Below are positions 2,890 to 59,837 of a stretch of DNA of 64,000 bases, in pieces (the first letter of the stretch is position 1; the number at the start of each line of letters is the position of its first letter). Origin of the DNA: a virus. Taxonomy: Duplodnaviria > Caudoviricetes. The position numbers and the translations under genes are program-made. The notes under the pieces were generated by a model that saw nothing but the letters and a program-made list of their open reading frames with translations, was not told the DNA's origin and ran no database searches. The stretch is from positions 1-64,000 of the IMG/VR virus record IMGVR_UViG_2806311071_000002; one strand, written 5' to 3'.

Positions 2890-2941
2890 GACCGCTTCCT
2901 CCTTTTATGCGTTTCATTAAAAGACCGATTTTATCTATAAT

Positions 2942-3193
2942 TCAAAACAAAATATTCTTAATTTTTATCATGTGATCTAGCTCTTCTTTAAATGTTTTAC
3001 ATTTATCCTTGTCAATCTCTCTACCTGTTTCATCTAGGAGCTTACCTTCGTCTGTGATGACACATGTCTGTCCGCAAAATTCAATCCCATTAGATTCAAT
3101 TAGCTTTATGAAATCATCATAAGTAAATTCAGTGCCATCTTCGTTAAACAGCGCTCCTTCAATATGTAATCCAATTGTTTTTACATTTTTCAT
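2942..3193 (-). CDS. Hypothetical phage protein
   Basis: GGGAGG RBS before MKNVKT. Confidence 0.55.
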
Positions 3194-3363
3194 TGAAACA
3201 ATCCTCCCCAAATTACTCCTGCAGCTATAGCAGCTATAAAGACAGAAACAAATTTCATTATTATGAAGAACTTGATATGCTTTGTTTCATCTTCAGTTAA
3301 GTTCAAATCTGATAAAGCGAATAAACCAAACATTATCAACAAAATCCAAGCTGTTACAATCAT

Positions 3364-3912
3364 CTACTTAGAACCTCTTTCGACTGTGTAACCACCGGTA
3401 ATGTCATTTAAGATCGTGCTACTTGATGAAAGCTTTTTGCTCTCACTATCTTTATTTTTAGTGTAATTAATGAAATCATCGAACTGGATCAAATACACTC
3501 CGTAAGCTGTGTTATTCAATTTATAAACGGTATCGTCACTTGGTTTCGAAAACCAGCTTTCAGTACCTTGGCCATACACTTCAAAAATTTGAACAATCTC
3601 GTCCTTATACTCAAAATAAGCCAGCTTATTTTCAAATTCACATTCCTCATCAACTGGATTTCCTACATGATTTGTCGCATATTCCATCATTGAGGTAAGC
3701 ATGTAACCTAATTCAACGTCCGAGAAACTTAGTTGAGGCTTAGGTGTTCCATAATAAATATCAGCCTCATTTAGAGATCCCCTCTGATTAACTTCTTTAA
3801 TGATCTCTTCAATAGCGGTGTAGCCTTCATGAATGATGAAATCTCTTCGCATCTCGTCTCTTCTTTTGTATTCCTCTAAGAAACTTGTTATCTTAAACTC
3901 TGTATTCTTCAT
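3364..3912 (-). CDS. Hypothetical acidic phage protein
   Basis: 182-aa ORF with AGGAGG RBS. Confidence 0.7.
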   Translation of the reverse strand: MKNTEFKITSFLEEYKRRDEMRRDFIIHEGYTAIEEIIKEVNQRGSLNEADIYYGTPKPQLSFSDVELGYMLTSMMEYATNHVGNPVDEECEFENKLAYFEYKDEIVQIFEVYGQGTESWFSKPSDDTVYKLNNTAYGVYLIQFDDFINYTKNKDSESKKLSSSSTILNDITGGYTVERGSK

Positions 3913-4023
3913 TTAACTCCTCCTTGTACAAATCGATTATTACTGGTAACCGTTGAAAGAAAGTAATAATGCAACCTCTAGCATCAAAAAGGTATTCGCA
4001 ATCATTTTCAGTACTTGATTACG

Positions 4024-4554
4024 TTAGTTTTTGTATAATTCCCTACGTATTTTCTCTGCTACGCTTGCAGCTTCATTTAAATTTTCAAAACGCCCAAAAA
4101 CTTTATTTTTACCTTGATACATAAACTGAACAACATACTTTTTATTTGAAAAAGATACATTCCTCACTCCTGTCTTGCCGTTTGAGTTTGCACCTTTTCT
4201 GTTTTTAGAGTTTTCTTTAAAAGTCCGAGGTCTTAAATTTGCTTCTGTGTTATTTAGTGTGTCGTGATCTATATGATCAACTACCTTTTTGGAGTCAGTT
4301 GGGCAAATGATTCTATGTAAGTAATACGTTTTGTACTTAGGTTTACCATTAATAATCCCCAATTATTTAGAAGCCTGGCAATAAAAACTGTTTGTGTTCT
4401 TTGCCCATTTAGCTGTCCATGTAAGCCCTAGCTCTTTAAGTTTTTCCAGGTTTTTGGTGTCCACAATGGTTTTTACATCTTCAGAATTTCTTCTTTTGAG
4501 ATATATGACTGTGATTTCTCCGTTTACTTCAATCTTATTTTTTATATTCATCAT
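4024..4554 (-). pseudogene. HNH-AP2 homing endonuclease interrupted by one in-frame TAA
   Basis: ORFs 4363-4554 and 4024-4362 are contiguous and in frame; YLHR...VDHIDHDTLNN...NLR HNH motif and TGVRNV...GRF AP2 motif. Confidence 0.8.
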
Positions 4555-4795
4555 CCTTTTTTAGCTTTTTCATGAACAAAATCTTAATAGAATCAACATT
4601 TTAATCTGTTGTAATCGTAAATGACCCATCATCTTCATCTAGAGTAATAACAATTTCACGAATACCATTGATACAGTCACTAAATTCTTGCATTTCCCTT
4701 CCGAGTTTCTGAATTGATTTAGCCAACTCCTCCGGTGTATTTGCTCCTCTTTGGGTACTCATTATTAAATTCTCCCTTCAAATAAAATTAGAATT

Positions 4796-5626
4796 TCATT
4801 TGATCTCAAATGTCTTTAGCTCAAACGTTTTATACGTGTCAACTTCATTACCAGGTACCTCATTTACTCTTGGATACATATCGTAGTCATACGGATACCC
4901 AATGCAATTCATGTGAAAGCTCGTTCCTTCTTTATCAAACTCAGCTTGTAAATGATCGTGTCCACAAATCCAATGTTCCGCATTAATGAATGGCAAATCG
5001 ACCATATAGCAGCTGTTAGGCTCAAATGGTGAATATGGATTGTGTACAGGAGGGACATGCGAAACAAATACATCAATGTGAGTGTTTTGAAGGGTATCAT
5101 ACCAGTCCATTGATTCTTTCCACATTGCTCTTACCGCATCTTCTTTGCTGTATCCATTAAGGCTGATATAGTTTGAATCATTTGAGACTCCTTTGAAGAA
5201 ATCCCACCCTTCATTTCCTTTAGGAAGATACCACATAACATCTCCTGCAAAGACTTTCCCTTTGTATGTATCCGTTGACTTTATTAATGGAGTGACATTC
5301 TTGATATCTGTAGCCTTTTGAATTAGATCATTTAACCTTCCCAATGAATCTGAGTATTTTCGTTGCTGATTTTTGCTGAGTAAATAAAGATCATGATTAC
5401 CATACGTGAAATAAACCTTTTCATATTGGTTTGCTACTTCGTCAAGTACCCACAGTGTCTGTTGATTCCACTCTGTAAAGTCACCGGCAATGATTAATAC
5501 CTCTCCATTTCCATTCGATATTAACCTTCTAATAATCTCCCTTGTTCGCTTTTCCCACTTGATTTGATTATCGTTCCAAGGAATCCAGTGGTTAATATGC
5601 AGATCTGAAACATAATCGATTTTCAT
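4796..5626 (-). CDS. yotB: Calcineurin-like metallophosphoesterase
   Basis: SDLH, AGDF, GNHD, SHVPP and GHDH motifs; SPbeta position. Confidence 0.85.
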
Positions 5627-5710
5627 TTTATCCCCCCTTCTTTGTTTAAGTACGAGTTAACTCATGCTCCATGACCAATTGACATAAATCCCCTCTTTTC
5701 AAATTAATGT

Positions 5711-5767: not shown

Positions 5768-5784
5768 CTTTAGGAGATGATCAT

Positions 5785-6267: not shown

Positions 6268-6617
6268 TTTAATAGCCTCCAACAAAAACAAGTGAAATTA
6301 TCAATAACCAAAAGACTGCTCCAGAAACAGCAAGAAAGCTTTTTGCAATACACATAAACTCTTGAAAATCATTCTTCAACGACTCTTTCACTGCATCACC
6401 TTCTCTTTAACTTCTCTTTAAAATACAGATTTCATATTAACTTAGTCGTAATACCTAATTTCTTTTTTATCCATCACTTTTCGGATTATTCGCTCATGTT
6501 TCGATCTCCTTCTTTTGTTGCTTCCTTTAACTTTTGGTGTTTGAAACATTCCATCGCAAGTCCAATCATATCCGCTATACTTTTTAAACACCGTCGTCTT
6601 CAGGCGTCTATGATACG

Positions 6618-7791: not shown

Positions 7792-8310
7792 CTATGCTTT
7801 TCTGAAATTTTCATAAGTAATAAATGAATAATCTTGTCCTTTTGTTGTTAGCGCACTCCGATGATCCTTTTCAATTATTCTCCAATCATCATTTAACCTT
7901 GGAAAATAGGAATCTGCCTTCGCAACAACTGAATCAACAATCGTTAAATAAACCTTATCTGCATGAGGTAAGAATGCCTCGTATATAGCGCCTCCTCCAA
8001 TGACCATTACTTCTTCATCTGTATCCAATTGCCCTCGTATGAGCTTTAATACATCGTTAACCGAATGATAAACAAATGAAGAGTGATCAGGCTTGAAATC
8101 CTTATTTTTAGTCAATATGATATTCCTTCGGTTCTGAAGTGGCTTTCCTGTAATGTTTACGATCGATTCGTATGTAAGTCTTCCCTGAATACACAACTTT
8201 CCTGTAGTGAGTTCTTTAAAACGTTTTATGTCTTCAGGAATATGGTAAAGCAGATTATTCTCATACCCGATGGCCATTGATTTGTCGCAGCAAGCAATAA
8301 GAGATAGCAT
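7792..8310 (-). CDS. dfrA: Dihydrofolate reductase
   Basis: IGYENNLLYHIPEDIKRFK, GRLTYESI, PLQNRRNIILT, VIGGGAIY and DSYFP motifs. Confidence 0.95.
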   Translation of the reverse strand: MLSLIACCDKSMAIGYENNLLYHIPEDIKRFKELTTGKLCIQGRLTYESIVNITGKPLQNRRNIILTKNKDFKPDHSSFVYHSVNDVLKLIRGQLDTDEEVMVIGGGAIYEAFLPHADKVYLTIVDSVVAKADSYFPRLNDDWRIIEKDHRSALTTKGQDYSFITYENFRKA

Positions 8311-9149
8311 TATACCGCTACCTCAAAGTAAAGCTTGTCTCCATGCTTATAATTAACCAATTTGAAATCATCAATTGTGAAATCATAAAAGTCTTTTACA
8401 TCCGGATTAATCCATAGCTCAGGTGCTTCATATTGCTCTCTGTCCATTTGAATTTTCAAATTGTCTATATGGCGAGTGTATACATGACAGTCTCCGATAT
8501 TGAAGATATACTCACCAGACTCATAACCAGTAACTTTAGCAATCATACGCTGCAATACATTGTACTGGAATACATTGAATGGATTCCCGAGCGCGAGATC
8601 ATTACTGCGACAGAAAACTTCTAAATGCAACTTCCCGCCTTTTACAAGCCATTGAGTGCCATAAACACAGGGCGTCAATGCCATTGAGTCTAATTCATCC
8701 GGGTTCCAAAGTGTTGTAATATGCCTACGGGAAGACGGGTTGTTTTTTAACTGATGGAGAAGATAATCAACCTGGTCAACTTTCTCACCGTTTAGCTCCC
8801 TGTTCTTTTTACCAAGCTGATATCCATATGCTTTACCGATCGTACCATCTTCGTGTTTCCATTGATCCCAAATATGTACGCCCATCTTGTTTAATTCGTT
8901 AACATCATTTGATTTAAGTTGCCATATCCAAAGCAATTCCTTGATTGCTGTTTTCCAAGCAACTTTTTTAGTCGTTAAAATTGGTATTTCAGAATTATCA
9001 AAGCGCATTTGCTTACTGATTACACTTAATGTATGTGCTGGTGTTCCATCAGTATCCCATTTGGTTCTGACATCGAATTCTTCGTCTGATACCCCATTAT
9101 TAATAATGTCATTTATGATTGTGTTGTACTGCTTATCAAATTGACTCAT
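8310..9149 (-). CDS. thyA: Thymidylate synthase (thyP3-like)
   Basis: PILTTKK, SRRHI, MALTPC, RSND...NPFN and GDCHVY motifs. Confidence 0.97.
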   Translation of the reverse strand: MSQFDKQYNTIINDIINNGVSDEEFDVRTKWDTDGTPAHTLSVISKQMRFDNSEIPILTTKKVAWKTAIKELLWIWQLKSNDVNELNKMGVHIWDQWKHEDGTIGKAYGYQLGKKNRELNGEKVDQVDYLLHQLKNNPSSRRHITTLWNPDELDSMALTPCVYGTQWLVKGGKLHLEVFCRSNDLALGNPFNVFQYNVLQRMIAKVTGYESGEYIFNIGDCHVYTRHIDNLKIQMDREQYEAPELWINPDVKDFYDFTIDDFKLVNYKHGDKLYFEVAV

Positions 9150-10177: not shown

Positions 10178-10790
10178 ATCTTTTCCCCTTTTTGTTTTAA
10201 TTTGATTCTAATAAACTCAAAAAATTAACTGCTGCAACTCTATACCTTTGGTCTTCTTCATAAGTTGCAACTTGTTTCATATGCTCAAAGAACTTATCCT
10301 CAAGCCCTTGTTTTTGAATAAATCCCAAACAAAGTCCGTTTCTGAAGAGCATGTCATCATACTTTGCTTGTAAATCTTTACGGCTGTTATTGTTTATGGT
10401 CTTTTTCCTCCTTAAAATTTGTATAAAAGTCTTCTTTTATAGAGATGTTCGTTCAATCGACACCCTTTGGTATCCCTAAGTTCTTTGTAAACTTTAGCCA
10501 TCATAATTTCGCTTTTTCTAAATTTTAAACTTGTACATATTCCCTTTCCTGTCTACATGATAGCGTCCTTTTGGATAATATACATATCCATCTGCATTTA
10601 CCTTATCAATTACATTAAACATGAATTCGCCATGTTTTGTATTCCCTGTCATCCACGCCTTTTTACGTAATCTTTTTTTCATCCAGCAACTCCTTGGTTG
10701 GTATAATTGTTGAGTTTTTTGAGTATTTTAAGTTGTACCCTGGCTGAGACCCTCCACTGACAAACATCATGATCAAAGCCAGGGTTTGTA

Positions 10791-16635: not shown

Positions 16636-16993
16636 TAAGTTGTACCTCCCGATTAATCTTCTGCAAGTCTTGTTTTGTTCCACTTAGTTCAAACTTTAAT
16701 AACAATGGTACATGGAACATTGCTGAAAGCTTGTCCCCAGCTAAACCATAGTTATCACCCCAAACCTTGTTACCACTCACAGCAACACCTTTTATTTTAT
16801 TTTTATTCTTAATAATGAAATTCAAAGTCCTTTCAGGTACTTCCCCAAAGCCTATCGTATATGTAATATGTATGAATTCTTCTTCAACAATTAAGTCATC
16901 TGTAATTTCAATGATGTCAAAGTTTAACTCCTTTTGTAATGCTTGAGCAAACCTTTTAACGTTACCTGTCTTGCTTTCATATGTAATAATCAA
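16598..16993 (-). CDS. nrdI: Flavodoxin-like NrdI
   Basis: SKTGNVKRF, YTIGFG, SGNKVWG and FELSG motifs. Confidence 0.95.
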   Translation of the reverse strand: MIITYESKTGNVKRFAQALQKELNFDIIEITDDLIVEEEFIHITYTIGFGEVPERTLNFIIKNKNKIKGVAVSGNKVWGDNYGLAGDKLSAMFHVPLLLKFELSGTKQDLQKINREVQLIDKHNTKVDQAQ

Positions 16994-17340: not shown

Positions 17341-17554
17341 TCCACAACTCCCTTTTCTTTATTTTTTGTTTTTATCTTTGTCATGTCTTACGTCTAACTT
17401 ATCCATATCATTGAGAATATGGTCAATAACAACATCACTGAACTTACCATAGACCTTATATCCAATTAATTTGCTTCTTAGATCTCTCCACTTTCTTGCT
17501 GCACTCATTTTATTTCCCCTTCCTATGAAACTGTGATTTTATAGAGTTATTCTC

Positions 17555-18321: not shown

Positions 18322-18430
18322 TCCAATTTCCTCAGCAGTTGTGTTTGAATTTATCAGAGCTTCTCGAATACGTTGAGACTGCCTTTGACTTATACTAATG
18401 TCTAATCAACTCCTTAAAATCATCCTTTTA

Positions 18431-18715
18431 TTAAAATTTCAATACTCCATCCCAATCATCCAACTCCTTTAATTCTTCCTCAGCCATTTCATTTCTGGCG
18501 AAGTATTTTTTAGCTTCTTCAACAATGTTTAACACTACTTGTTTTATTGTCATACCTATATACGATAAAGACTCCCGTTTAATGTACTCGGCACTATTAT
18601 TTACATGCTTAACAGTAAAGCTATTAACTTCCCATCCCTTCGTATAAAGCGGTTCAGCATAGATTGTTATAAATAGCTCTTTGTCTTTCAAAGTAACACG
18701 TTTTTTAATTTTCAC
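18431..18715 (-). CDS. Hypothetical protein
   Basis: AGGAG RBS, GTG start; bounded by 18-bp palindromes on both sides. Confidence 0.65.
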   Translation of the reverse strand: MKIKKRVTLKDKELFITIYAEPLYTKGWEVNSFTVKHVNNSAEYIKRESLSYIGMTIKQVVLNIVEEAKKYFARNEMAEEELKELDDWDGVLKF

Positions 18716-18758
18716 TGCTTGTTCTCCTTTTCGTTAAAATAAAACTTTTAATTAAATT

Positions 18759-20065: not shown

Positions 20066-20220
20066 TTTTCTCCCTCATTGATGATTTTCTTTAAGGCTTT
20101 TAAAAGCATGTTTAATGATTTCTTGTCACCCATTTCATCCCGATTGACCTCAATAAAGTGAACTGCTGACGTTAATTTATCCTGCATTTCAGTTGCTCCT
20201 TTCACGATAAAAATTGAATT

Positions 20221-20691
20221 TTAATCTAAATGTTCCATTACAATTTTTAGATAATCCTTATAGTCAATAGCAACCACATTGTCTCCTTTGACAAGTCGTT
20301 CACTTTTAACTCCAAAGAACCATCTGTCGTCTATCCACTGACGACCAGTCATATTATTTAAACCAAGTTCATCATGAGACCTGAAAGGACTCACCTTTTC
20401 AATTTGCTCAATCATAGCTTTTATTTCTTTAAAATGCTTAGATCGTTTTTTGATAGCGTAAAATCCGTCTTCTGGATTTTTAACAATGTCATTTTTAAAT
20501 ACTTCATATGCTTCAGTTCCTTCATAGACTCCGAAATATTCAGAGTGATAAAACGAGAAACCTTCCTCGACGCCATACTTTTCTTTAAACTTGTCGAAGA
20601 AAGTGTTAATGCCCTCTTTTCGTTTCTTCTCTGCTTTATACCAATCGCTCTCCTGTTTAACTTCATAAATCGGTGCATTTAAGGTTTGCAT
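20221..20691 (-). CDS. Hypothetical phage protein
   Basis: Likely start MQTLNAP after GAGGAG. Confidence 0.65.
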   Translation of the reverse strand: MQTLNAPIYEVKQESDWYKAEKKRKEGINTFFDKFKEKYGVEEGFSFYHSEYFGVYEGTEAYEVFKNDIVKNPEDGFYAIKKRSKHFKEIKAMIEQIEKVSPFRSHDELGLNNMTGRQWIDDRWFFGVKSERLVKGDNVVAIDYKDYLKIVMEHLD

Positions 20692-20998
20692 ACTCCCACT
20701 CCTCATTATTTGTTTTGATTTGTCGTATACTGCGCTTGCCCGGGAAATTATGAATATTTCCTTCTGACTATTTCCCTTCACATTGTTCATATCACTGTAA
20801 GAATAACTCCAAGAATGAGTGAACATCCTCCGATTAAGAAAACCGTAAGATAAAATGGTTTGCCTTCTTTAAAGTTCTTATTCTCAACCAAACATGCCAT
20901 TCCATTGCCTAAGAATATTGAACCGAATAAGATCAGACCCAGTACTAAATATGAAATTTCATCGCCTCAATTCTCGATAAAAGGAATATTATATACTC

Positions 20999-21196
20999 TT
21001 ATTTTATTTTTAAATTTAAATGCTCCAAACTTTTTGAAACAGTCATTTCACTACATTCGTTCTTAATGCGCTTAGATTGTTCTTGTGCGCAATCATTGCA
21101 ACAATTGAAATCTACATAAGTCTTCAATTCACTTACTCTGAGGCATATGATTTGGCCTTCTATGTATTCGCTACAGATATCACATATTCTGTTCAT
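20999..21196 (-). CDS. Small Cys-rich protein
   Basis: CDIC...CCNDC. Confidence 0.6.
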   Translation of the reverse strand: MNRICDICSEYIEGQIICLRVSELKTYVDFNCCNDCAQEQSKRIKNECSEMTVSKSLEHLNLKIK

Positions 21197-21941: not shown

Positions 21942-21989
21942 TGCAGACCCACCTCTTATATTTTATTTTTACTCTTTAAAAGACAAATT

Positions 21990-25230: not shown

Positions 25231-25234
25231 ACAA

Positions 25235-40875: not shown

Positions 40876-41148
40876 TTATTCAGTTTCTTTTCTTACCCAT
40901 TTTCTAACCTTCATTTCTTTTAACTCCACTTCATAACAATCCACTTGATCTTCAAATTCCCAAGGGCTTTCATGCTGGCTTTCAGTGGCACCCTTGCTAT
41001 AGAAAGTTTCAAAAAAGCGTCCTTGATATGGAAATACAATTCTATAGTGAACGCTCCACCTTGATGTGTCAGTGATTTCTTCTAAAATTGAGGACTCCGG
41101 TAGCCCCAATTCATTTACCATGTAATCCTTGTCCAATTTAATATTCAT
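40876..41148 (-). CDS. Hypothetical phage protein
   Basis: SRWS...GATESQ...PWE segment. Confidence 0.7.
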   Translation of the reverse strand: MNIKLDKDYMVNELGLPESSILEEITDTSRWSVHYRIVFPYQGRFFETFYSKGATESQHESPWEFEDQVDCYEVELKEMKVRKWVRKETE

Positions 41149-42028: not shown

Positions 42029-42109
42029 AATCTCCCTTTATTGATTTTATTTTTATCCTTATAAAATTCCTGTTTTATCTTCATCGATGCTATCTGTTCT
42101 CTCTAATTA

Positions 42110-44367: not shown

Positions 44368-44534
44368 AAATAAATCACATCCTTTAAAATAACTATTTTA
44401 TTTTGATCCCTAAATAATTTACCAAATATCATAGCCCACAAAATCATTTAAAATATTCGTCATTTCCTCATTCTCTTCTTCTGTCAATCCATATTCATCA
44501 AGTCTCTTTAAATAATCTTCTCGTTCGTTCTTGG

Positions 44535-46960: not shown

Positions 46961-47083
46961 TCGCTTCCTCCTATCTGTTTAAAATCACGATTTTAATTTA
47001 ACTTTAATGTGTATCATCTTGAGAAAATCCCCTTTAATTGGTAAGCTGACACCAGATCATACTTATACAAGGCAGGTGATGTC

Positions 47084-47696: not shown

Positions 47697-47881
47697 TCGA
47701 ATAACCTCCACTTATTTTATTTTTATCCTTATTTCTTCTATATGTATTCCATCCGCAGCCGTCAAACATGCTTATGTCCGCACCCAGATGCCATTTAAAC
47801 CAAACTAAGTTAAACCAGGCTGTGTCAATTATGTGCTTTAAATATCCTATGCGCCTTCCTCCTTTCAATGAAATAATCCTT

Positions 47882-48073
47882 TTATTGTGATTTATTTTCC
47901 AACGCTTTTAATTCTTCTTCATACAAAGGTAGAATAGCCTTTTCGGCTTCGCCCCTAGACACACCATGCTGCTCCATATATGTAACAATATCCATTCCAA
48001 TGTTATTTCCTAGCTCGGTTTCCCAAACTATGTGATCAGCCATAGCAAGATTTCCATCCATTAAGTAGTTCAT
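47882..48073 (-). CDS. Hypothetical protein
   Basis: AGGGG RBS; bounded by palindrome copies. Confidence 0.6.
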   Translation of the reverse strand: MNYLMDGNLAMADHIVWETELGNNIGMDIVTYMEQHGVSRGEAEKAILPLYEEELKALENKSQ

Positions 48074-49048: not shown

Positions 49049-49287
49049 TTTTTCATCTACTTTCTTTTAATTTTTCTAATTTCAAAACGCCATTTATATG
49101 CATCTGAGCCAATTCGATCGAATAACTTTTTCTTGCTTTTGTTTTTGATGGTTCTGATATTCCAAAACAAAACTTTCGTGATCGTGTATTATATCCTCCA
49201 TATAAAACATCATTCTCCATTTAAATCCTCCCTTTCTCAATAAAGTTTTATTTTTAATCTAATTCCCTCATGTTTTCCCACTCCCAA

Positions 49288-49974: not shown

Positions 49975-50012
49975 TCAATCGCCATCCTTTTTTAATAAAA
50001 TGCATCTTTTAA

Positions 50013-50441
50013 TCACTTCTTTGTAGCATAGCTTTCAAAGAATACTTCAACTGATCTTAGGTAACGGTATTTATTTGGATCTTCCGGATTTCTGAATCTT
50101 TTCGATAGCACCAATGACCAATTAAACATCAATGGGGAAAACCTCGCCCATTTGCTAAAGCTTAACTGAAGACCTTTCCATTCTCTTCCCGCTAATTCTG
50201 CTAATTCCAGAATTTGATCTTCTTTTAAATTCACTTCTTCTTCAAACATCACTTGAATTTCTTCGTATGGCTTATGCCCAAAACAACAATGACGTGTTTT
50301 CAATCCAATCTTGAAATTTAAAATATCAATTAAATTAATCATTTGTGTACCAAGCTCATCATATGGAATACCATTTTTGAGGAACTTTTCTCTTTGGTTT
50401 AGTTTCATATTATCTTTCAATAGCAGATCAAAAGAATTCAT
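50013..50441 (-). CDS. Hypothetical SPbeta-type protein
   Basis: GIPYDEL...[11 protein letters not shown] segment. Confidence 0.7.
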
Positions 50442-50461
50442 ACTCACTCCGCGCCCTCCTA

Positions 50462-50659
50462 TCACATGATAACTTGGCTAACACTTACACCATCCATTTT
50501 TATTCCTTCATATTCGTGCTTTATTCTCTGCTTATTATTGATTGAACCAATTTCACCTTTGCCGAAACAATCAACGCAAGGAATATCCTTGTCATAAAAT
50601 TTCCTCCCGTCTTCAACCCATGTAGCGTATCCTGTACCTTCGCAAACTGTGCACTTCAT
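50462..50659 (-). CDS. Small DnaJ-type Zn-finger protein
   Basis: CTVCEGTG...CVDCFGKG. Confidence 0.65.
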
Positions 50660-51992: not shown

Positions 51993-52039
51993 TGTTCTTC
52001 CCCCTTTACCTTTCTTGATAAAACTTACATTTTATGTAC

Positions 52040-52282
52040 TTATATTTCATTTTTATCCAACTTCATTTTAATAAAGAATTTTGTATACCCTATGTATTCC
52101 CTTTTGTATTTGCTTCCCTTCTTATCGGAGCCGGCATCAACAAATTCAAAGTATTTTTCTTTTATCGGATGTGCGCACACATAACCAATTTTCTCTTTTT
52201 CTATAATTCTTCTAACTAAACTTACTTTATTAAAATCAGTTAATGAAATTGTATTGTTCATACAGCTTTTTGTTCTAATCAT
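52040..52282 (-). CDS. Hypothetical protein
   Basis: GGAGAGG RBS before MIRTKS. Confidence 0.5.
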   Translation of the reverse strand: MIRTKSCMNNTISLTDFNKVSLVRRIIEKEKIGYVCAHPIKEKYFEFVDAGSDKKGSKYKREYIGYTKFFIKMKLDKNEI

Positions 52283-52574
52283 TGGCCTCTCCTTCTTGGT
52301 CAATTTGTATCTCTGCTATGTACATACCTTCATACGCATAATCGATTATTGAATGAAATAGCCCTACAACTCTTCTCATTTCTTTTTTGTCTTTGTGAAT
52401 GAGAAGTGTATCATATGCGTCTTTTAATTTACTCAACTTTTCATCAAGGAGCATTGCTTTTCTAACTCACCACCAGATACTTATTTTTTATATTTAACTA
52501 TAATTTACGCTACAAAATAATCTTTGTCAATCAAATTCGATCATATTTTTTTCCAGATGACCGAATTTGATTTT

Positions 52575-52793
52575 TCATTCTGCAAATTTAAATATTATTT
52601 CATTGATATGATCCCTTATTTTCACCAGATTTTCTGGTGTTACGGACACTGTTACGTCTACATGTTTGCCATTAAAGTTTAAAAGGAATTGATATTGCTC
52701 TGATGTCAAAATCTTTTTAGTTAGTTTGAGATTAACGGTGTTGTAATCCTGAAGATCAACAAACAATTTCACGTGTTCACCTACAAGCTCCAA
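52575..52793 (-). CDS. Hypothetical protein
   Basis: ORF in operon; start uncertain. Confidence 0.5.
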   Translation of the reverse strand: MELVGEHVKLFVDLQDYNTVNLKLTKKILTSEQYQFLLNFNGKHVDVTVSVTPENLVKIRDHINEIIFKFAE

Positions 52794-52849
52794 CTACACT
52801 GCTGTAATGCACATGCTGTAATTCCATGGAGTCTTCCTATTTTTTTTAT

Positions 52850-53065
52850 TTAAAGTACTTCTTCAGTATTAGATACCTCATATTCAATGTCATTCAATTT
52901 AAATTTCTCAACTTTCCCGTCTGCCTGCAGAAAGCATACTTCCCTGGCGACCATGAGTTTTTCACACAGTCTTTCAGCAAGGCTTTGAGAAACCTCTTCG
53001 TTTTTTGCTTTGTTTTTAAGTACAATTTCTAGATGTAGTGATACATTGTTCAAATAACCTGCCAT
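52850..53065 (-). CDS. yopT: YopT-like protein
   Basis: MAGYLNNVSLHLEIVLKNKA; divergent from the HTH gene as in SPbeta. Confidence 0.7.
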   Translation of the reverse strand: MAGYLNNVSLHLEIVLKNKAKNEEVSQSLAERLCEKLMVAREVCFLQADGKVEKFKLNDIEYEVSNTEEVL

Positions 53066-53111
53066 CCTCATTCTCCTATACTATGTTTTTTCTCTCCGAC
53101 AACCTTACAAG

Positions 53112-53125
53112 GGAACAAGCGTTCT
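53112..53125. promoter_or_regulatory. Putative LexA (SOS/Cheo) box
   Basis: GGAACAAGCGTTCT matches GAAC-N4-GTTC in the yopT/yopS divergent promoter region. Confidence 0.6.
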
Positions 53126-53242
53126 ATTTTGTTTGATAACATTATACAATTAATATGAGTGTAACGCTAGTGGTTATTTGAAGTCATCGTATGATATGTA
53201 TTATGTCTTTCCATAACAGAACTAGCAGGAGGATGTCCGATA

Positions 53243-53467
53243 ATGATTAAAGTTGGGATCGGGCAATGCTTGATACCTGAACTTTGTAGAAAGAAAGACA
53301 TTACAATTAATGAACTTGCTGAAATAACAGGAATCAAAAAGCAGCAATTGAGCGATTATAACCGGATGAAAAAAGTCGAGATGACTATCAGAACAGCTAA
53401 AAGAATCGCTGAAGCATTAGATTGTAATGTGGAAGATCTCTATGAATTCAAGGTTGAACGGCATTGA
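53243..53467 (+). CDS. yopS: Cro/CI-type HTH regulator
   Basis: ITINELAEITGIKKQQLSDY...IAEALDCNVEDLY. Confidence 0.85.
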   Translation: MIKVGIGQCLIPELCRKKDITINELAEITGIKKQQLSDYNRMKKVEMTIRTAKRIAEALDCNVEDLYEFKVERH

Positions 53468-53687
53468 GTTTCGACTAAGACAAATGTCCTGGTCTCCTCC
53501 TGAGTAAACCATACGGTTTACACGACTATTTTACTACATGCTGCCATTGGTGGAAAGAACTTATTTTGGCATATTGTGTCTAGTTTTGTCGAATGTCGAA
53601 ATTTTTCATATGAATATTAATATTATGCATATTTTTTATTTTTGAACATAACAAAACACCCAGCTTTAAGCTGGGCAGGGAAAAAAT

Positions 53688-54680
53688 TTAAATTAATTCT
53701 TCTTCTTTTAAACCTAACTCTTCTGCATAAAGCTTTTTTATCACTTCTTCATTAACGTAATCTTTCATACTGTAAACAGCCCTAGATCTATTACTAACAA
53801 CTAAATTAAAATCATCGATGATCTGGTATCTAACGGCATTATCGACAACGCCTCTTTCTTTATAAAGCTGATACGCTCGATAAAGATGACCTGACCTTAC
53901 AATTGTATTAGGCGTAAGAAAGTTTATTTTAAAGAATTCTGAGATATCCGTAATTAAATTTGTGATTATATGTCTACCGGCTTGCCCTTCATTTTTTCCC
54001 CGAGTTATTTTAGTTTTTATTACATAGTCATTGTCCACCAGGGAGACTTCTTTTGCCCAGCCTTCGCCTCTACCATTTTTCAATTGATACATGGTTTCCT
54101 TTGAAGCGTTTAATGCAATTATGAGACAATCACTACTAACTTTTAATTTGCGATCTCCATTCTTTATGTCATGCAATGTTAGAACATTACCGTTTAGCAT
54201 TGCTTCTTCAATTTGTTGCCGTGAAAGACTAAGAAGTTCGGAGTGCGCCATACCTGAGATACCTTCAAACAAACATCTTAGAACTGCTTTCGATTGATAA
54301 TTGAGCAGTTTTTCTTGCATCTCTTCCAGTTCACTATAGGAGATGTATAATTTTTTACCACCTAAGCACCCATATAGCTCTTCATTCGATATAGTTCTCG
54401 CTAAATTTACAGTACCCTTGCTCAAATTATAAGATGCTGCCCAATCGATATACATTGACAATAATGATAATGTTCTTTTTACACTCCCAATTGTTGTTTG
54501 ATCGAATGATCGTATTAGCTCTAAAATCTGTACTGAAGTGAAATCATAAATATCTTTTTTATAAAGATTTTCCGTTATTTCTGATTTTGAGAACAAGGGT
54601 CTCAACTGGTGAGCTACTGCCTCTGTAACAGAATCTAAATACTTTTCCTTAATATCACTATTGAACATTGCATCAAACAT
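53688..54680 (-). CDS. mrpR: Master prophage repressor MrpR (YopR/SroF), degenerate tyrosine-recombinase fold
   Basis: MFNSDIKEKYL, LFEGISG and IVRSG segments; last gene of the six-gene operon after aimP. Confidence 0.85.
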   Translation of the reverse strand: MFDAMFNSDIKEKYLDSVTEAVAHQLRPLFSKSEITENLYKKDIYDFTSVQILELIRSFDQTTIGSVKRTLSLLSMYIDWAASYNLSKGTVNLARTISNEELYGCLGGKKLYISYSELEEMQEKLLNYQSKAVLRCLFEGISGMAHSELLSLSRQQIEEAMLNGNVLTLHDIKNGDRKLKVSSDCLIIALNASKETMYQLKNGRGEGWAKEVSLVDNDYVIKTKITRGKNEGQAGRHIITNLITDISEFFKINFLTPNTIVRSGHLYRAYQLYKERGVVDNAVRYQIIDDFNLVVSNRSRAVYSMKDYVNEEVIKKLYAEELGLKEEELI

Positions 54681-54688
54681 CTCCTAAG

Positions 54689-56080
54689 CTAATTAAATTG
54701 CTGCTCTATCTCAATTTCTCTGAAGAAGTCACAAATTTTTTGAGGAGCTCTCGGAATACCGTTATTATCAATGACCCCAAGCTCCTTCCAAAGAGGATTG
54801 TCTTTTCTGAAATCAATTGGTTTTAGTATCTCTTCGACCTTATTTTCTACATCATCAATCGATACATCTGATTCCTGTAATCGTTTCGCTAATTGAACAT
54901 AGCCGTTAAAAAACAAATTGGCGTTAACAAGAGATCGCTTCCGTTCGTCTGCAATACTGCCTAAAAATTCATCAATATAAATATTGGCCATAGCATCAAA
55001 AAAGGCACTTAAGTATCTCCCGGTTTTCAAGATGTCTGCTTGATTGCTAAAATCCTTTTTAGAATAGTTGCGTTCAACAGCTTTCTTGAAATCCGAAAAA
55101 GTAATTAACAGGTTTTGCCCGCGGTTGATCCAGTCACTGTTGGTCTTAATGTAATCGCCAATGAGACTGTTATCTTGAATAAACTTAACGATCTTATTCG
55201 AGAAATAATGCTGACTCATCTCAGCAACCTTAGATTTTTTCACTGGGTTTATAGTGTTCTGTTGTCCAAAATGCTCTCTAGCCTGTTTTTGAGTGTAATT
55301 GTATATGTCTACTTTGAACACACGCTTTAGCAAATGCTTTAATTCAGGATGTTGTCTAATAGCAGTGGTTATCCCGATAAGTCTATGATACCCGTCCAGC
55401 ACGTCCAAAATTGTACCTTCAGTTACTGTTAAAGACATATTTTCTTCGTCATATATTAACTCAATTCCTTCATCCGCGCTGCCTACACGTGCATTAAAAG
55501 TGAACATTGAGCTTATTAATTTTCCCTCTTTAAACAACTCTTTAATTTCATCTACTGATTTTTTATTTAATTCAGGAACGGGTATTTCAATATCAGTTCC
55601 TTCAAGTTTCTTGGTTTTATTTGTTCTTTGAGCATTCGGATTATAATGAAGTAGCTTATTTTCAAATAGACGATAAAGCTCTTCAGCAGTAATCTGGAAT
55701 GTTAAATTGCTATCTGAGTATTTAACAGCGTTTTTAAAGGTGTAAGGAAGTTTAATTTCGTCTTCCACTTCACCTTCCCAAAGCGTTTCAATATCCTGCA
55801 TATCGGCTTCAGTAAAATAATTGGCAGGGTTAAACCTTTCTGATTCAAGAATCTTGAATAGGCATTTAGCTAAAAAATACATGTATTCTTTAGAAAGGTC
55901 TAACTCTGGATTTTCTAATTCGTTAATTATTTTTTGTGTTGTACCAGGAGGTATTTTGAACTCCGCCATACCTATTTGGACATCATTTATAAAAGAGCGT
56001 ATATGTTTTTTTTCAGAAAACACGTCTCTCATTTCGGTGAGCAATTTCTCATTTGCAGATTGGTCAAATATTACCGTCAT
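54689..56080 (-). CDS. yopQ: YopQ/SroE, ParB/DndB-like domain protein
   Basis: NPNAQR and VLDGYHRL motifs; operon position. Confidence 0.8.
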   Translation of the reverse strand: MTVIFDQSANEKLLTEMRDVFSEKKHIRSFINDVQIGMAEFKIPPGTTQKIINELENPELDLSKEYMYFLAKCLFKILESERFNPANYFTEADMQDIETLWEGEVEDEIKLPYTFKNAVKYSDSNLTFQITAEELYRLFENKLLHYNPNAQRTNKTKKLEGTDIEIPVPELNKKSVDEIKELFKEGKLISSMFTFNARVGSADEGIELIYDEENMSLTVTEGTILDVLDGYHRLIGITTAIRQHPELKHLLKRVFKVDIYNYTQKQAREHFGQQNTINPVKKSKVAEMSQHYFSNKIVKFIQDNSLIGDYIKTNSDWINRGQNLLITFSDFKKAVERNYSKKDFSNQADILKTGRYLSAFFDAMANIYIDEFLGSIADERKRSLVNANLFFNGYVQLAKRLQESDVSIDDVENKVEEILKPIDFRKDNPLWKELGVIDNNGIPRAPQKICDFFREIEIEQQFN

Positions 56081-56166
56081 TATATCACCTCATATTATGT
56101 TGCTAAAATAAAGTTACCAAAGGGAAACTTTATTATCAAGAGAAAAATAAATAATAATTATTATAA

Positions 56167-57249
56167 TCATTTCTCTTTTGATTCCGATTGGAATTTAATG
56201 AATTTATTCAGTATTGACGGTTCCACTGTTTCAAAAAAAGAAATAAAATCTTCTTTTTTAGCTTCATAAAGAATGTCAATTTCAATGTCCTCATCCATAA
56301 TAACGCCTGCAGCCTTGGATATATCTTTTCTTTTACTCATATAACGTTCAGTGGTTGCTACACTGCTATGATTACCTTGCTCCCTCGCAGCTAATATGTC
56401 GTGACCAGTGTGTTCGTAAACAAAGTCAATACCCACGCCCTTAAAAGAGTGAAATTTCAAGTCCCTCTCAGGCGGTATTCCCAACCTTTCTTTAGACCGT
56501 TTTAGAGAATGTCTTAGAGATTGCTCAGATAGACCTTTAAAAACATAATCCGTGTCGACTGCGTTTTCATCTCTTAGTTCTAAAAGCTCTTCATAAAAAG
56601 ATTTATTGATCCCAGTAGACACCACTTTAGAGCCCTTGTCTAAAACTGAAACCACATAATGACCGGTCGTCGGATCAAGTTCAAAATCAATCCATCTTAA
56701 AACTAATAATGCGCTAAGACGAAAAGAAGTTCTTGCTGCTGCCTTCACACACAGTTTTTTGTGTAATGGTTTTTGACGTTCGTTAATATACATATCTTCG
56801 GCTATAAGATCAGCTTCTTCTTTGTTTGTTCTTCCCCAATTCTTCTCAACTGTTTTCAACTTTCCAACAGAGTCAAATACGCTTAAATCAATAAATTCTT
56901 TGTAATCGTGGTTAAGGTATTTATATAGCATTCTTAAGGATGCTAATTTTCTTTTAATACTCTTATTTACAAGTCCTTTACTTTGAAGATGTTTTATATA
57001 CCCCGCAAGGTCGCTTTTAGTGATTTCTAAATCTTTTTCAGACAAATATTCGATTTCTTTTTCTTTTATGATTCTGAAAAATTGCTTTATATCACATGCA
57101 TAATTTTTTCGTGTATTAGAAACAGCAGTTAAATCCTGAGTTTGGTACTTTGAGTTACCTGAGCTGCTGGCTATGTCTTTGGTGTAGAGAAAGCTCATAA
57201 TATCCTCAAACACCTTGTATTCCTTAATAGGTTTAATTTCTGCACTCAT
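56167..57249 (-). CDS. yopP: YopP/SroD tyrosine-recombinase-family protein
   Basis: TSFRLSAL (R), DKG (K), FHSFK (H; R replaced by K), GNHSS...TERY (H, Y); start MSAEIK after GGAGG. Confidence 0.85.
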   Translation of the reverse strand: MSAEIKPIKEYKVFEDIMSFLYTKDIASSSGNSKYQTQDLTAVSNTRKNYACDIKQFFRIIKEKEIEYLSEKDLEITKSDLAGYIKHLQSKGLVNKSIKRKLASLRMLYKYLNHDYKEFIDLSVFDSVGKLKTVEKNWGRTNKEEADLIAEDMYINERQKPLHKKLCVKAAARTSFRLSALLVLRWIDFELDPTTGHYVVSVLDKGSKVVSTGINKSFYEELLELRDENAVDTDYVFKGLSEQSLRHSLKRSKERLGIPPERDLKFHSFKGVGIDFVYEHTGHDILAAREQGNHSSVATTERYMSKRKDISKAAGVIMDEDIEIDILYEAKKEDFISFFETVEPSILNKFIKFQSESKEK

Positions 57250-57466
57250 CGTCCTGTTCCTCCTTCCGTTTAAATTCGTTATCATCAATAAGATCATCAA
57301 TGGAAACATCCAGTACCAAAGCGATCAGCTTAACGGAAGTTACATCTCCCTCATGCGGTTCATTAATGATTTTCTTGAGTTTATCAATATTAATCATTGT
57401 TTCTTTTGCAATCTGTTCCATTGTGATGTTGCGTTCTTCCATCAGCTTTTTAATTCGCTTTGACAT
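57233..57466 (-). CDS. yopO: XRE-family HTH protein (YopO/SroC)
   Basis: IKKLMEERNITMEQIAKET...IALVLDVSIDDL. Confidence 0.8.
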   Translation of the reverse strand: MSKRIKKLMEERNITMEQIAKETMINIDKLKKIINEPHEGDVTSVKLIALVLDVSIDDLIDDNEFKRKEEQDDECRN

Positions 57467-57516
57467 AGGATCCTCCTTATAAGTTATGTATAATAAGGAT
57501 ATGCCCGCCTCTAGAG

Positions 57517-57849
57517 CTACGGTTTATAAATAAATTGCTCAAATTCAATTGAGATATGTGTTTTTAAATTCTCCATAAAAGCTATAAGCGTAGCATAATG
57601 AGGATTAGATTCTGCAGTTCTAGACAGCGCATCTCCGCCTCTGAGAACGTGCTCTATATCCTGGAGCAATGCTTTCACTTCCATTTTTGCTTTAAATAGG
57701 TCGCTTTGAGTCTTTGCGTTAAGTATGATTTTTCTGATGTCCAAAATACTATTTAGATACGTCTCAACAGCCATATTAGTAAAGTTTTCGTCAATGCTCT
57801 TAGTACTGCTAATTTTCTTCTTAGTAGCCTTTACATCCACTACTTGCAT
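57517..57849 (-). CDS. yopN: YopN/SroB
   Basis: Second gene of the operon after aimP; assignment mainly positional. Confidence 0.65.
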   Translation of the reverse strand: MQVVDVKATKKKISSTKSIDENFTNMAVETYLNSILDIRKIILNAKTQSDLFKAKMEVKALLQDIEHVLRGGDALSRTAESNPHYATLIAFMENLKTHISIEFEQFIYKP

Positions 57850-57854
57850 GGGTA

Positions 57855-58055
57855 CTAACCCTCCTTACACGCGCTCAATAATTTCATATAACCCTTAGTC
57901 ATTTCCTTCCTAACGGTTTCTCCTCTCTTTATTTTTTCTTTTTCTAACTCCTTTTCGTTTGCGAAGAAATCGTTATGTGCAATATTTTCAAACTTATTCT
58001 GATATAAGGTTTTATGTAATGTCATGCTGCTTTGCAAATACTTTATAGCCGACAT
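57855..58055 (-). CDS. yopM: YopM/SroA
   Basis: First gene of the operon after aimP; GGGAGGAG RBS; assignment mainly positional. Confidence 0.65.
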   Translation of the reverse strand: MSAIKYLQSSMTLHKTLYQNKFENIAHNDFFANEKELEKEKIKRGETVRKEMTKGYMKLLSACKEG

Positions 58056-58310
58056 AATTTCTCCTCCCGAACCTATACTTATTTTTTCTTTTTATTTCTA
58101 AATTCATTTTAATGCATTAACCCTAATAAGTAAAGATGTTTTAACGACAAATAGCACATTCTTTTTAATCTTTTTTCGAATGCGCTTGTTTCAATATTTA
58201 ATTATCGATAGTGATTTTTAGGTTTATGTAAGTGCACGGTTACTTGATCTGATGATTTTCCCTTACTTATGCGAAATTGGACTTATCTCGTGATGATCTT
58301 TAAAGCACAA

Positions 58311-58341
58311 AAGACGCCTAGCTCAATGAGCCAAACGTCTT
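58311..58341 (-). terminator. Terminator downstream of aimP
   Basis: aagacg-cctagctcaatgagccaaa-cgtctt hairpin with T-run on the - strand. Confidence 0.6.
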
Positions 58342-58406
58342 CTTGGTTTCATAATTTAATTTAATTAAGTAAATAATATAATCTTCTTAATTATGTGTCA
58401 AGGTTT

Positions 58407-58532
58407 TTATGCGCCTCGTGGCATTCCGGCTACTTCATATTCGCCAGAAGCTTGTTGGCTAGATGTGTTAACTCCTGCAAATGAGACAAAAAGTGCTCCC
58501 AAAATAATTGCTGCCATAACTACTTTTTTCAT
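58407..58532 (-). CDS. aimP: Arbitrium pro-peptide AimP, mature peptide GMPRGA (missed by ORF track)
   Basis: MKKVVMAAIILGALFVSFAGVNTSSQQASGEYEVAGMPRGA*; AAAGGAGGTG RBS. Confidence 0.96.
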   Translation of the reverse strand: MKKVVMAAIILGALFVSFAGVNTSSQQASGEYEVAGMPRGA

Positions 58533-58552
58533 GCTCTCACCTCCTTTCAAGT

Positions 58553-59713
58553 TTACAACGCCAGCAGATTTAAAAGCTGTTCATTCTCTCCAAGCTGCTT
58601 TAACATTATTAACGGTAATCTGATAAGAAACTTGTCATTTGATTTTTTAAAATATTCAATTGATGAGTAGAAGCATTGCTTGTCCATTCTGAGTTTTCCT
58701 TTTAAGTAATAATGCATGGCCAACTCATTATCGTTATGTTCCAAATGATCTAATTGCTCTAGGATTTCTTTTGCTTTTTCTGTATTTTTTTTATTTATAA
58801 GCATATGTGCGTATTCCTGTAAATCAATTATTTCCTTAGAATCTGTGTTTAGAAAATCGTTTTCTTTTTCCCAAACATTGTTTAAAAAACAGAGAGCTTG
58901 TCCCAATATTCTTTTATAGATGTAATTGTCCGTTGAAGCACTTAAACCCTTTAGAAAAAATTCTTTAGCTTGATTGTAATCTGAGAATAATAAGGAATTG
59001 CCAGCAGTTAGATAGCTAAAAACTTGGAACCTTTGGATATTGGTGCTGTCAATTGCTTTCTTTGCATACTCTCTACATTCACTTAACTTGTTCTCATTAA
59101 GTTTGATATTCGATTGTAAAACAAAAACTCGGGTTTGATACAGACTTTTGAGAAAAAGATTTTCTTTAACTTCAGAAAGGTCAACTTGTTTTATTAGTCT
59201 ATCCATTGGAGCAAAGTTGCCTGACTCTAGATAATGGTATAGCAAAGATATACGCGCAAAGTTGTTCATTTCAGTTGTTTTAATATTTAGTCTTCCAAGC
59301 CTTTTTGTCGCCTCAAACTCATTAATATTTCCTTGCGTAAGCTCTCTATGTATCTCGTACACCTTGCCATATTCTTTACTTTTATTATTGCTGCTTTTAA
59401 TCATTAAATTTATCAACCGGTCTTCAATTTCATAAAACTTATTCGCATCTGCATACTCTAAAGCACTTCTTGCCGCTTTAGTATTTGGATCAAGATGCGC
59501 ACAATAGTCCTTCATTAGCTCATTTTCGCGTTCAGGATACTGGCTTTTCACAATATTTACAAGAGAAGAGAATTCATTAAAAGTTTTCCCATCATGATTT
59601 AGGAAATCGTAAAGAGGGTTTGGGTTTTTAAGACCGGCTACCGTTGCCCATTTACTCATGAGTGATTTATCATTTTCTAAATCTTTCCGCATAGCTATTC
59701 TTATAAGCTCCAT
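58553..59713 (-). CDS. aimR: Arbitrium receptor AimR (HTH plus TPR)
   Basis: 386 aa; MELIRIAM...KWATVAGLKNPNPLYDFLNHDGK N-terminus; upstream of aimP. Confidence 0.96.
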   Translation of the reverse strand: MELIRIAMRKDLENDKSLMSKWATVAGLKNPNPLYDFLNHDGKTFNEFSSLVNIVKSQYPERENELMKDYCAHLDPNTKAARSALEYADANKFYEIEDRLINLMIKSSNNKSKEYGKVYEIHRELTQGNINEFEATKRLGRLNIKTTEMNNFARISLLYHYLESGNFAPMDRLIKQVDLSEVKENLFLKSLYQTRVFVLQSNIKLNENKLSECREYAKKAIDSTNIQRFQVFSYLTAGNSLLFSDYNQAKEFFLKGLSASTDNYIYKRILGQALCFLNNVWEKENDFLNTDSKEIIDLQEYAHMLINKKNTEKAKEILEQLDHLEHNDNELAMHYYLKGKLRMDKQCFYSSIEYFKKSNDKFLIRLPLIMLKQLGENEQLLNLLAL

Positions 59714-59837
59714 TCGTTTCCCCTCTTTTCATATGTTCCTTTATTTATAATCTTATAATACAGAATAAACACAATCTCGTCAACGATATAATGCTTATTT
59801 TTTATTTTTATCTATTTAAAATTCGTATTTTATGAAG

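Follow-up and report, generated by a model that had tools for sequence, protein, structure and literature searches.

The window analysed here, the first 64,000 nucleotides of a 122,255 base-pair (bp) SPbeta-like phage genome (IMG/VR record IMGVR_UViG_2806311071_000002), carries at its gene junctions a repeated palindrome, WTAAAA-N6-TTTTAW. The palindrome is the core of a symmetric 28-bp site restricted to phage DNA. Each copy bears its own 6-bp centre, the centres keep their order from one relative to the next, and homology between relatives breaks inside the site. Judging from these comparisons, the palindromes are best read as joints for like-for-like exchange and are probably core sites of a phage tyrosine recombinase of the Xer/Cre kind.

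Anatomy and distribution of the palindrome

A first-pass annotation of the window, made from the sequence alone, had named 14 exact copies of the palindrome. All of them were found, against 0.38 expected from 100 dinucleotide shuffles (maximum 2). The enrichment is specific to one spacing: with the gap between half-sites varied from 0 to 20, the window contains 14 copies at N6 and 0-1 at each other spacing, and SPbeta contains 33 at N6 versus 0-3 elsewhere. Everted and direct arrangements of the half-sites give no spacing peak. The Bacillus comparison set, made of this phage and seven relatives, has 22-36 exact copies in each of its eight genomes and at most 3 at other spacings from N3 to N9.

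Symmetry extends outward beyond the 18-bp core; the whole site is therefore 28 bp long (11+6+11), a dyad of the form TYTrnWTAAAA-N6-TTTTAWnyARA with 11-bp arms and a 6-bp centre. The half-site, derived from 110 and then from 516 half-sites, reads T-Y-T-r-n-W-T-A-A-A-A, the first centre base then being mostly T or G, and its outer positions are conserved on both sides (T 88, Y 98, T 78 among 110 half-sites). This geometry, together with the enrichment of N6 only, agrees with the layout that the annotation had likened to a tyrosine-recombinase core site, the simple enzymes of that class using arms of about 11-13 bp around a centre of 6-8 bp. A 28-bp matrix that includes the flanks beyond the core yields, at threshold 12, 298 matches in the eight genomes and 5 in reversed sequences. 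Lowering the threshold to 10 gives 33 sites in this phage, 22 of them inside the window: the 14 exact copies and eight one-mismatch copies (4587, 4782, 6418, 17525, 20977, 40862, 47868 and 49240), which had been picked out by eye and all score at least 13. Five other one-mismatch matches to the search pattern (25516, 37863, 40575, 50691 and 56243) fall below the matrix cut and are attributed to chance.

The sites occupy intergenic gaps or overlap the stop codon of a neighbouring gene by 1-4 bases, as had been described for the window. Among the 298 sites, 229 lie at tandem, 29 at convergent and 19 at divergent junctions. In tandem context, the stop codon TAA coincides with core positions 2-4 at 54 sites of the eight genomes, and the commonest distance from the core to the next start codon is 20 nucleotides. 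These overlaps and this spacing look like the tight packing of a site obliged to stay outside genes. No site lies between 23553 and 37498 of the window, confirming the gap reported over 25.9-36.9 kilobases (kb).

Base-pair covariation was sought in 110 half-sites, and mirrored variable positions pair no oftener than column frequencies predict. Nor do the sites form a stable RNA hairpin, folding with only -0.2 to -4.4 kcal/mol (z +1.4 to -2.3). Because covariation is absent, the RNA folds are weak and sites also occur between convergent and divergent genes, the sequence signal most likely belongs to the DNA duplex, where two protein subunits would read it as a symmetric pair, rather than to a transcript.

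A comparable motif density in host DNA had been named as an outcome that would speak against a phage-specific system. Three Bacillus chromosomes (3.7-4.5 Mb) contain 25, 14 and 13 matches, versus 24, 15 and 15 for the reversed pattern, a density about 50 times lower than in the phage. The host genomes used for this comparison came from a search with an NrdE-like query; those with an excess of the motif carry SPbeta-like prophages. In a Paenibacillus genome, 10 of the 18 matches cluster in a prophage region, within 106 kb around a yomM homologue. A query of genome contigs with an MrpR-like protein, aimed at prophages, found nothing.

The same palindrome emerges from a scan that makes no use of the motif. 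All 5-mer dyads were ranked, comparing the count at N6 with the mean at other spacings, and TAAAA-N6-TTTTA came out as the top-ranked dyad in six phages:

SPbeta: 34 copies at N6, mean 1.6 at other spacings
This phage: 24 copies, mean 1.2
Geobacillus virus E3: 30 copies, mean 3.4
Mammaliicoccus phi127: 37 copies, mean 1.6
Bacillus cohnii phage 136: 23 copies, mean 2.4
Staphylococcus SPbeta-like 2: 17 copies, mean 2.5

In Lactococcus phiL47 the palindrome is not the top dyad, that place being taken by ATTAT-N3-ATAAT (13 versus 1.9). Among the matches listed when viral contigs were scanned with the 28-bp pattern, most are single chance ones in AT-rich contigs. One contig, IMGVR_UViG_3300011335_000895, has three matches at 32-159 with a 50-bp period; they form a tandem repeat, unlike the SPbeta-type arrangement, and the contig is an unrelated viral one. 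No description of the palindrome was found in the searchable literature, which did not take in the 1999 SPbeta genome paper, and the SPbeta GenBank record has no annotated feature corresponding to it.

Conserved centres and mosaic boundaries

Sorted by exact centre, the 298 sites fall into 76 families, nine of which have one member in each of the eight genomes. Each relative repeats 16-20 of this phage's 33 centres in unchanged order (Spearman -1.00 where records share a start). Within a genome no centre is used twice, against about 1.1 reuses expected per genome (chance of no collision 0.008, for 83 centres), and near-identical centres are also fewer than expected. As every copy has a unique centre and occupies the same map position in relatives, the centre amounts to an address. 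The sites at 4587, 18414, 18734 and 2917 illustrate the point: 6-7 relatives have exactly the same centre there, between 70-bp flanks that are unrelated on both sides. Since centres keep their order while the bordering genes are replaced, the copies look like fixed, numbered swap joints. In an independent lineage, Mammaliicoccus phi127 and phi36 share 18 of 35 centres, in order, six of them with one-sided homology.

The sites of the window are listed below by the coordinates of the dyad, with core, matrix score and the recurrence of the centre among the seven relatives.

2912-2939: exact core 2917-2934, centre GACCGA, score 22.6; centre in 7 of 7 relatives, both flanks unrelated in six, one flank common with SPR
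4582-4609: one-mismatch core 4587-4604, score 14.4; centre in 7 relatives, flanks unrelated in all
4777-4804: one-mismatch core 4782-4799, centre TTAGAA, score 13.1
6413-6440: one-mismatch core 6418-6435, score 15.9; centre in 5 relatives, with one-sided and two-sided flank homology
10418-10445: exact core 10423-10440, score 26.2; a BLAST match to SPbeta stops at 10440, the exact edge of the core, and one centre base sets the SPbeta copy at 128076 apart
17520-17547: one-mismatch core 17525-17542, score 13.3; centre common to 5 relatives
18409-18436: exact core 18414-18431, centre GGATGA on the minus strand, score 19.6; one-base overlap with the stop-codon end of gene 18431-18715; centre in 6 relatives, all flanks unrelated
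18729-18756: exact core 18734-18751, centre GTTTTA on the minus strand, score 24.3; centre in 7 of 7 relatives with unrelated flanks, the family having three left and six right flank classes
20202-20229: exact core 20207-20224, centre ATTGAA, score 20.2; overlaps the stop of gene 20221-20826; a BLAST match begins at 20208, within the site
20972-20999: one-mismatch core 20977-20994, score 13.9; centre common to 6 relatives; a BLAST match to SPbeta begins at 20977, the core edge
21971-21998: exact core 21976-21993, score 24.7; at the downstream end of the methyltransferase gene (21990-23501), whose stop it overlaps; centre in 5 relatives
23531-23558: exact core 23536-23553, centre GATCAA on the minus strand, score 23.6; upstream of the methyltransferase gene; address family present in 8 of 8 genomes, with six left and four right flank classes
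37493-37520: exact core 37498-37515, score 20.6; centre not found in the 7 relatives
40857-40884: one-mismatch core 40862-40879, score 14.4; overlaps the stop of gene 40876-41148; centre in 5 relatives
42056-42083: exact core 42061-42078, score 17.6; centre private to this phage among the eight
44379-44406: exact core 44384-44401, score 19.4; centre private to this phage among the eight
46974-47001: exact core 46979-46996, score 22.7; one flank only homologous in 5 relatives; a BLAST match to SPbeta begins at 46979, the core edge
47863-47890: one-mismatch core 47868-47885, score 18.4; overlaps the stop of gene 47882-48073; centre in 3 relatives
49235-49262: one-mismatch core 49240-49257, score 15.5; a BLAST match to SPbeta stops at 49262
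49990-50017: exact core 49995-50012, centre GATGCA on the minus strand, score 19.4; abuts the stop of gene 50013-50465; centre in 7 relatives, with one-sided homology in three and none in four
52013-52040: exact core 52018-52035, score 17.5; centre in 7 relatives, flanks mostly unrelated
59811-59838: exact core 59816-59833, score 22.8; upstream of aimR; a long BLAST match to SPbeta (52308-59840) stops here, opposite SPbeta site 76170, which also lies upstream of aimR

The site at 23536 has a counterpart in the phage rho11s record X05242 and a one-mismatch copy in the SPR record K02124.

Where exactly homology ends was read from one-sided pairs, defined by an identity of 70% or more in one flank and of less than 50% in the other (239 distinct pairs). 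The shared flank is 80-97% identical, the near arm about 95% and the centre 85-91%. On the far side, the W is down to 72% and the outer arm to 44-54%, with 25-35% left further out. Homology therefore ends inside the far arm of the core. The centres are identical in 184 of the 239 pairs and differ by one base in 18; about 30 pairs have unlike centres, some of these being false matches through an adjacent A-rich repeat. This pattern goes against a tolerance of unlike centres, which the first-pass annotation had borrowed from Tn916-type integrases. Partners are matched in centre, an outcome that ordinary recombination drawn to longer identity predicts as well.

Flanks occur in several combinations at some addresses. 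All four L0/L1 by R0/R1 combinations exist around centre TTAGAA (4782), and centre ATTGAA (20207) is found with L0R0, L0R2, L1R0, L1R1, L1R2 and L2R0, a set in which all four gametes are included. A control restricted to tandem junctions with at least one conserved neighbour places a mosaic boundary at 89 of 130 junctions with a palindrome (68%) and at 227 of 721 without (31%), an odds ratio of 4.7. The SPbeta repeated element (SPBRE), another short repeat of these phages, is a mosaic boundary in 11 of 72 pairs (15%) versus 256 of 365 (70%) for the palindrome. When short exact matches with unrelated flanks were searched for blind to the motif, the palindrome, which makes up less than 1% of the genome, accounted for about one fifth of the cases.

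Comparison of breakpoints between relatives, proposed earlier as a check on cassette movement, gave a divided answer: homology does break at the sites, but pure indels with a palindrome at both ends stay at the chance level (2 of 90 versus 2.8 under the null). Junctions joining two different addresses amount to only a handful. Taken together, the chance-level two-site indels and the few mixed-address junctions indicate that the sites serve replacement in place and not gain, loss or shuffling.

Candidate proteins and competing explanations

An 11-6-11 site calls for a simple enzyme of the Xer/Cre type. In the mechanism that we propose, a symmetric pair of phage-encoded protein subunits would read the 28-bp duplex site. 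With two related genomes in one cell, exchange would occur between copies bearing the same address; a block of accessory genes would be replaced like for like, leaving gene order intact, and unlike centres would prevent recombination between the copies of one genome. The enzyme would be a simple phage tyrosine recombinase, YomM being the first candidate and YopP the second. For catalysed, centre-matched exchange by such an enzyme, as suggested by the sequence comparisons, we would put the chances slightly below even. We infer that a protein binds the site, which protein this might be, and that catalysis is at work rather than ordinary recombination on 16-28 identical bases.

Few proteins of this phage have homologues in distant site-carrying phages; the DNA-binding candidates among them are MrpR, YopQ, YopP and YomM. 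Their genes are given here together with aimR:

53688-54680: MrpR gene, in the window
54689-56080, minus strand: YopQ-like gene, DndB/ParB superfamily (Pfam DndB); candidate non-recombinase binder
56167-57309, minus strand: YopP-like tyrosine recombinase gene (Pfam Phage_integrase and SAM-like domain; PHROG 1 integrase); candidate binder
58553-59713: aimR, in the window
100683-101684 of the 122-kb genome, plus strand, outside the window: yomM, tyrosine recombinase; SPbeta counterpart 40301-41302, minus strand

The two recombinase genes belong to different modules, yopP to the lysogeny operon and yomM to the tail module; in each prophage examined, yomM has the tail chaperone genes on one side and the tape-measure gene on the other. 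Phages of the phi3T and SPbeta types use the same site, and YopP, YopQ and MrpR are only 27-37% identical between them. YopP, which the first-pass annotation had put forward as the enzyme, remains a candidate but a weaker one, with 33% identity between the two types against 86% for YomM. YomM is among the best-conserved proteins of the supergroup; Geobacillus E3 has it at 80% identity, the staphylococcal group at 54-55%, and phage 136 and phiL47 at 31%. The protein matches the PHROG 1 integrase family over its full length (E 5e-27), and both domains of its structure model can be matched to XerA, Cre, lambda Int and XerH. In a family of more than 700 proteins, Arg180, Lys, His281, His309 and Tyr319 are invariant and Lys284 stands where XerA has its second Arg, giving HxxK instead of HxxR; the orthologues of phage 136 and phiL47 have Arg at that position. 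In YopP, compared across 13 phages, Arg, Lys, His, His and Tyr are retained and the second Arg position reads HxxK or HxxR. A sequence search with a YopP-like protein against solved structures gave no match, and no described function of YomM was found in the searchable literature. YopQ, for which a ParB_N_Srx domain has been named (Brady et al., PMC8612738), has homologues in three of four distant site-carrying phages, and none was found in Lactococcus phiL47. On these grounds YomM is most likely the better candidate enzyme and YopP the second, the link of either protein to the palindrome being one of conservation only.

A number of observations weigh against catalysed exchange at the palindromes. 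About 60% of the mosaic boundaries at tandem junctions occur where there is no palindrome. The far-arm markers (W 72%, outer arm 44-54%) suggest that crossovers are spread over the arm and not placed at one phosphodiester bond. Some sites stand in fully conserved contexts and several address families have one flank class per side; the fully conserved contexts hint that exchange may not be the primary role. In YomM and YopP a Lys stands where most tyrosine recombinases carry the second catalytic Arg. Lactococcus phiL47 has homologues of both yomM and yopP, and the palindrome is absent from it. Finally, each major parental switch in four laboratory phi3T x SPbeta hybrids lies within a stretch of 1.4-18 kb over which the parents do not differ, so that ordinary homologous recombination suffices and nothing requires the sites. 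We set these hybrids aside as a test of site use, since shared identity of such length cannot separate site-specific from homologous exchange. A side observation on the same material is that several parent-identical crossover blocks in hybrids Hyb1-3 and PP526179 begin or end at palindromes, for example the methyltransferase block (centres GATCAA-TTTGTC).

The main rival is an operator-like docking site for a paired binder that does not recombine, either the ParB/DndB-like YopQ or a protein with a tyrosine-recombinase fold like MrpR. Such a binder would act in silencing, insulation or as a roadblock at gene junctions, in the manner of L5 stoperators or KorB sites, and the breakpoints would be a by-product of short-homology recombination on the 16-28 shared bases. 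We regard this as somewhat improbable, and yet as a serious contender. MrpR itself, from the same phage family, is built on a tyrosine-recombinase fold but no longer catalyses, and its target is a repeated palindromic operator (PMC10516654). The position of the sites, just past stop codons and ahead of ribosome-binding sites, would suit an operator, as would the address families in fully conserved contexts, the sufficiency of homologous recombination in the hybrids and the spread of crossovers over the far arm; homologues of yopQ and mrpR are found in distant site-carrying phages and not in the site-less phiL47. However, a true operator of similar length, SPBRE, is rarely a mosaic boundary, as described above. 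A docking role fails to predict centres kept letter for letter between unrelated flanks, or the lack of reuse within a genome. The sequences of YopQ, YopP and MrpR have diverged between phage types, yet the site is unchanged, and it is the SPBRE count that tracks the type of MrpR. Moreover, chromatin affinity purification of MrpR followed by sequencing (ChAP-seq) gave 10 peaks, at SPBRE promoters and not at the approximately 33 palindromes (PMC10516654).

A different use of catalysis, which we consider unlikely, is that the palindromes are natural heterospecific lox-like sites for YomM, the recombinase of the late operon, which would primarily circularise or resolve genomes that are packaged by the headful, terminally redundant and permuted. 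The terminally duplicated stretch would then usually hold two copies of one address, and unique centres would forbid deletions between different copies. Block exchange between co-infecting relatives at like addresses would be a by-product, one that would have shaped the whole phage supergroup. Far less credible still is the integron-like system that the first-pass annotation had proposed, with cassettes of a single gene and a site being gained, lost and reordered between copies with unlike centres. There are indeed a few junctions at which an arm belonging to one address meets the centre of a second; phi3T 80189, for instance, joins SPbeta addresses 87598 and 88399, and SPR has a single gene for 88 amino acids between two sites (115966/116266) where the window has one (23536). 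Against this, the order of addresses is strictly conserved, one-sided pairs mostly have identical centres, and indels between two palindromes do not exceed chance. Neither an integron integrase nor attI nor a promoter platform is present, and the sites are sequence-conserved 28-bp duplexes, unlike the long folded attC sites. Equally hard to sustain is a transcript signal for processing, stability or translational coupling between cistrons. The stop codon within the left arm of 54 sites and the regular distance to the next start would accord with it, but the lack of covariation and the negligible hairpins, the symmetry of the outer arms, the 48 sites between convergent or divergent genes and the absence of the signal from host genes disfavour this reading, including the RNA-processing role envisaged earlier. 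A promoter was rejected as well: the rho11s and SPR methyltransferase records predict -10 and -35 elements over or beside the site, but neither arm lies at a workable hexamer distance and the palindrome makes a poor promoter.

Related systems and neighbouring elements

The closest known system is that of the pdif sites, or dif modules, of Acinetobacter plasmids, which are 28 bp long and served by the host XerC/XerD (Mindlin et al. 2019, PMC6449649). The likeness lies in the 11-bp arms, the palindromic inner part and the variable 6-bp centre, and in the presence of many copies per replicon that bound accessory blocks. The differences are several. Both arms of the phage palindrome are alike and so do not divide into a XerC and a XerD half; the site is carried by a phage and not by a plasmid; the probable enzyme would be phage-encoded rather than the host Xer; phage copies have unique centres conserved by map position; and pdif modules move between contexts, whereas phage blocks are replaced in place only. 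Roughly half of the arm positions seem to agree with Bacillus dif, a sequence that we take to be unlike the palindrome; the lack of a motif excess in host chromosomes speaks neither for nor against a use of the site by host Xer proteins.

Exchange joints of the proposed kind would also resemble the Cre/loxP system of phage P1, in which inverted arms flanking a short centre are the substrate of a simple tyrosine recombinase of two domains. Lox sites with unlike centres (heterospecific sites) do not recombine with each other, and this is the principle of laboratory cassette exchange. The inverted arms around a short centre and the match of the YomM model to Cre and XerA are the points in common; P1 has one natural site, whereas 22-44 with distinct centres, 11-bp arms and a 6-bp centre occur here.

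SPBRE, introduced above as a reference, is bound by MrpR, a protein with a tyrosine-recombinase fold (Kohm et al. 2023, PMC10516654). It too is a repeated palindromic intergenic element of the same phages, with a 15-bp motif. An identity of the two elements was considered and rejected, the ten MrpR-bound SPbeta promoters sharing approximately AAATACAAAWAATATGTAT and not the palindrome. In contrast to the palindrome, SPBRE has about 10 copies, all alike and at promoters, and their count follows the repressor type: there are 10-12 SPBRE-like sites in SPbeta-type phages and 0-3 in phi3T, BUCT082 and this phage, the palindrome being unchanged in all. This phage has only three (including window positions 1908, plus strand, and 26700, minus strand) though its MrpR is 75% identical to that of SPbeta; the operator of its MrpR may differ from the strict SPBRE search pattern.

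Short conserved intergenic sites for module exchange are known from the promoter-early stem-loops of T4-type phages and from the boundary or linker sequences of lambdoid phages. Those elements are promoters or hairpins, alike everywhere and used by homologous recombination, whereas the palindrome has neither promoter nor stable hairpin and is dyad-symmetric, of a protein-binding type and equipped with position-specific centres. The stoperators of mycobacteriophage L5 are asymmetric 13-bp elements that all look alike, follow the direction of transcription and bind the immunity repressor. They share with the palindromes a number of about 30 copies in short gaps by stop codons across the genome, and differ in that the palindromes are symmetric, have individual centres and do not vary with repressor type.

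In the relatives of SPbeta, itself a model phage, the variable slots between these sites hold many anti-defence and defence genes. If the proposed exchange is real, numbered joints would explain how such genes can pass between phages while gene order stays intact. A function would also fall to one of the two orphan tyrosine recombinases that phages from Bacillus to Staphylococcus have in common, and a ready set of orthogonal sites would be at hand for engineering large phage genomes. Even as operators, 22-44 conserved sites per genome would represent an undescribed regulatory layer in a well-studied phage.

A second repeated element, approximately RAATAAAAATAAAAT, directly follows some of the palindromes and stops a few bases before the ribosome-binding site. 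Elements of the RAATAAAAATAAAAT type occur in the window at 23515-23531, 16795-16807 and 39957-39969 (minus strand), and in SPbeta at 113681-113700 and 132764-132785. They form conserved islands amid unrelated flanks.

Genes in the window are mostly on the minus strand, and its similarity to SPbeta, SPR, phi3T and the Goe phages is patchy (68-92% identity by BLAST). A dihydrofolate reductase gene (7792-8310, minus strand) adjoins a thymidylate synthase gene (8310-9149, minus strand) whose product is shared with phi3T at 89%; no homologue was detected in SPbeta. A 133,358-bp contig labelled Streptomyces sp. NPDC058103 (NZ_JBHVTC010000023.1) contains an NrdE segment 93% identical to that of this phage, has a size that fits an SPbeta-like phage, and is probably a Bacillus phage or a contaminant in that Streptomyces assembly.

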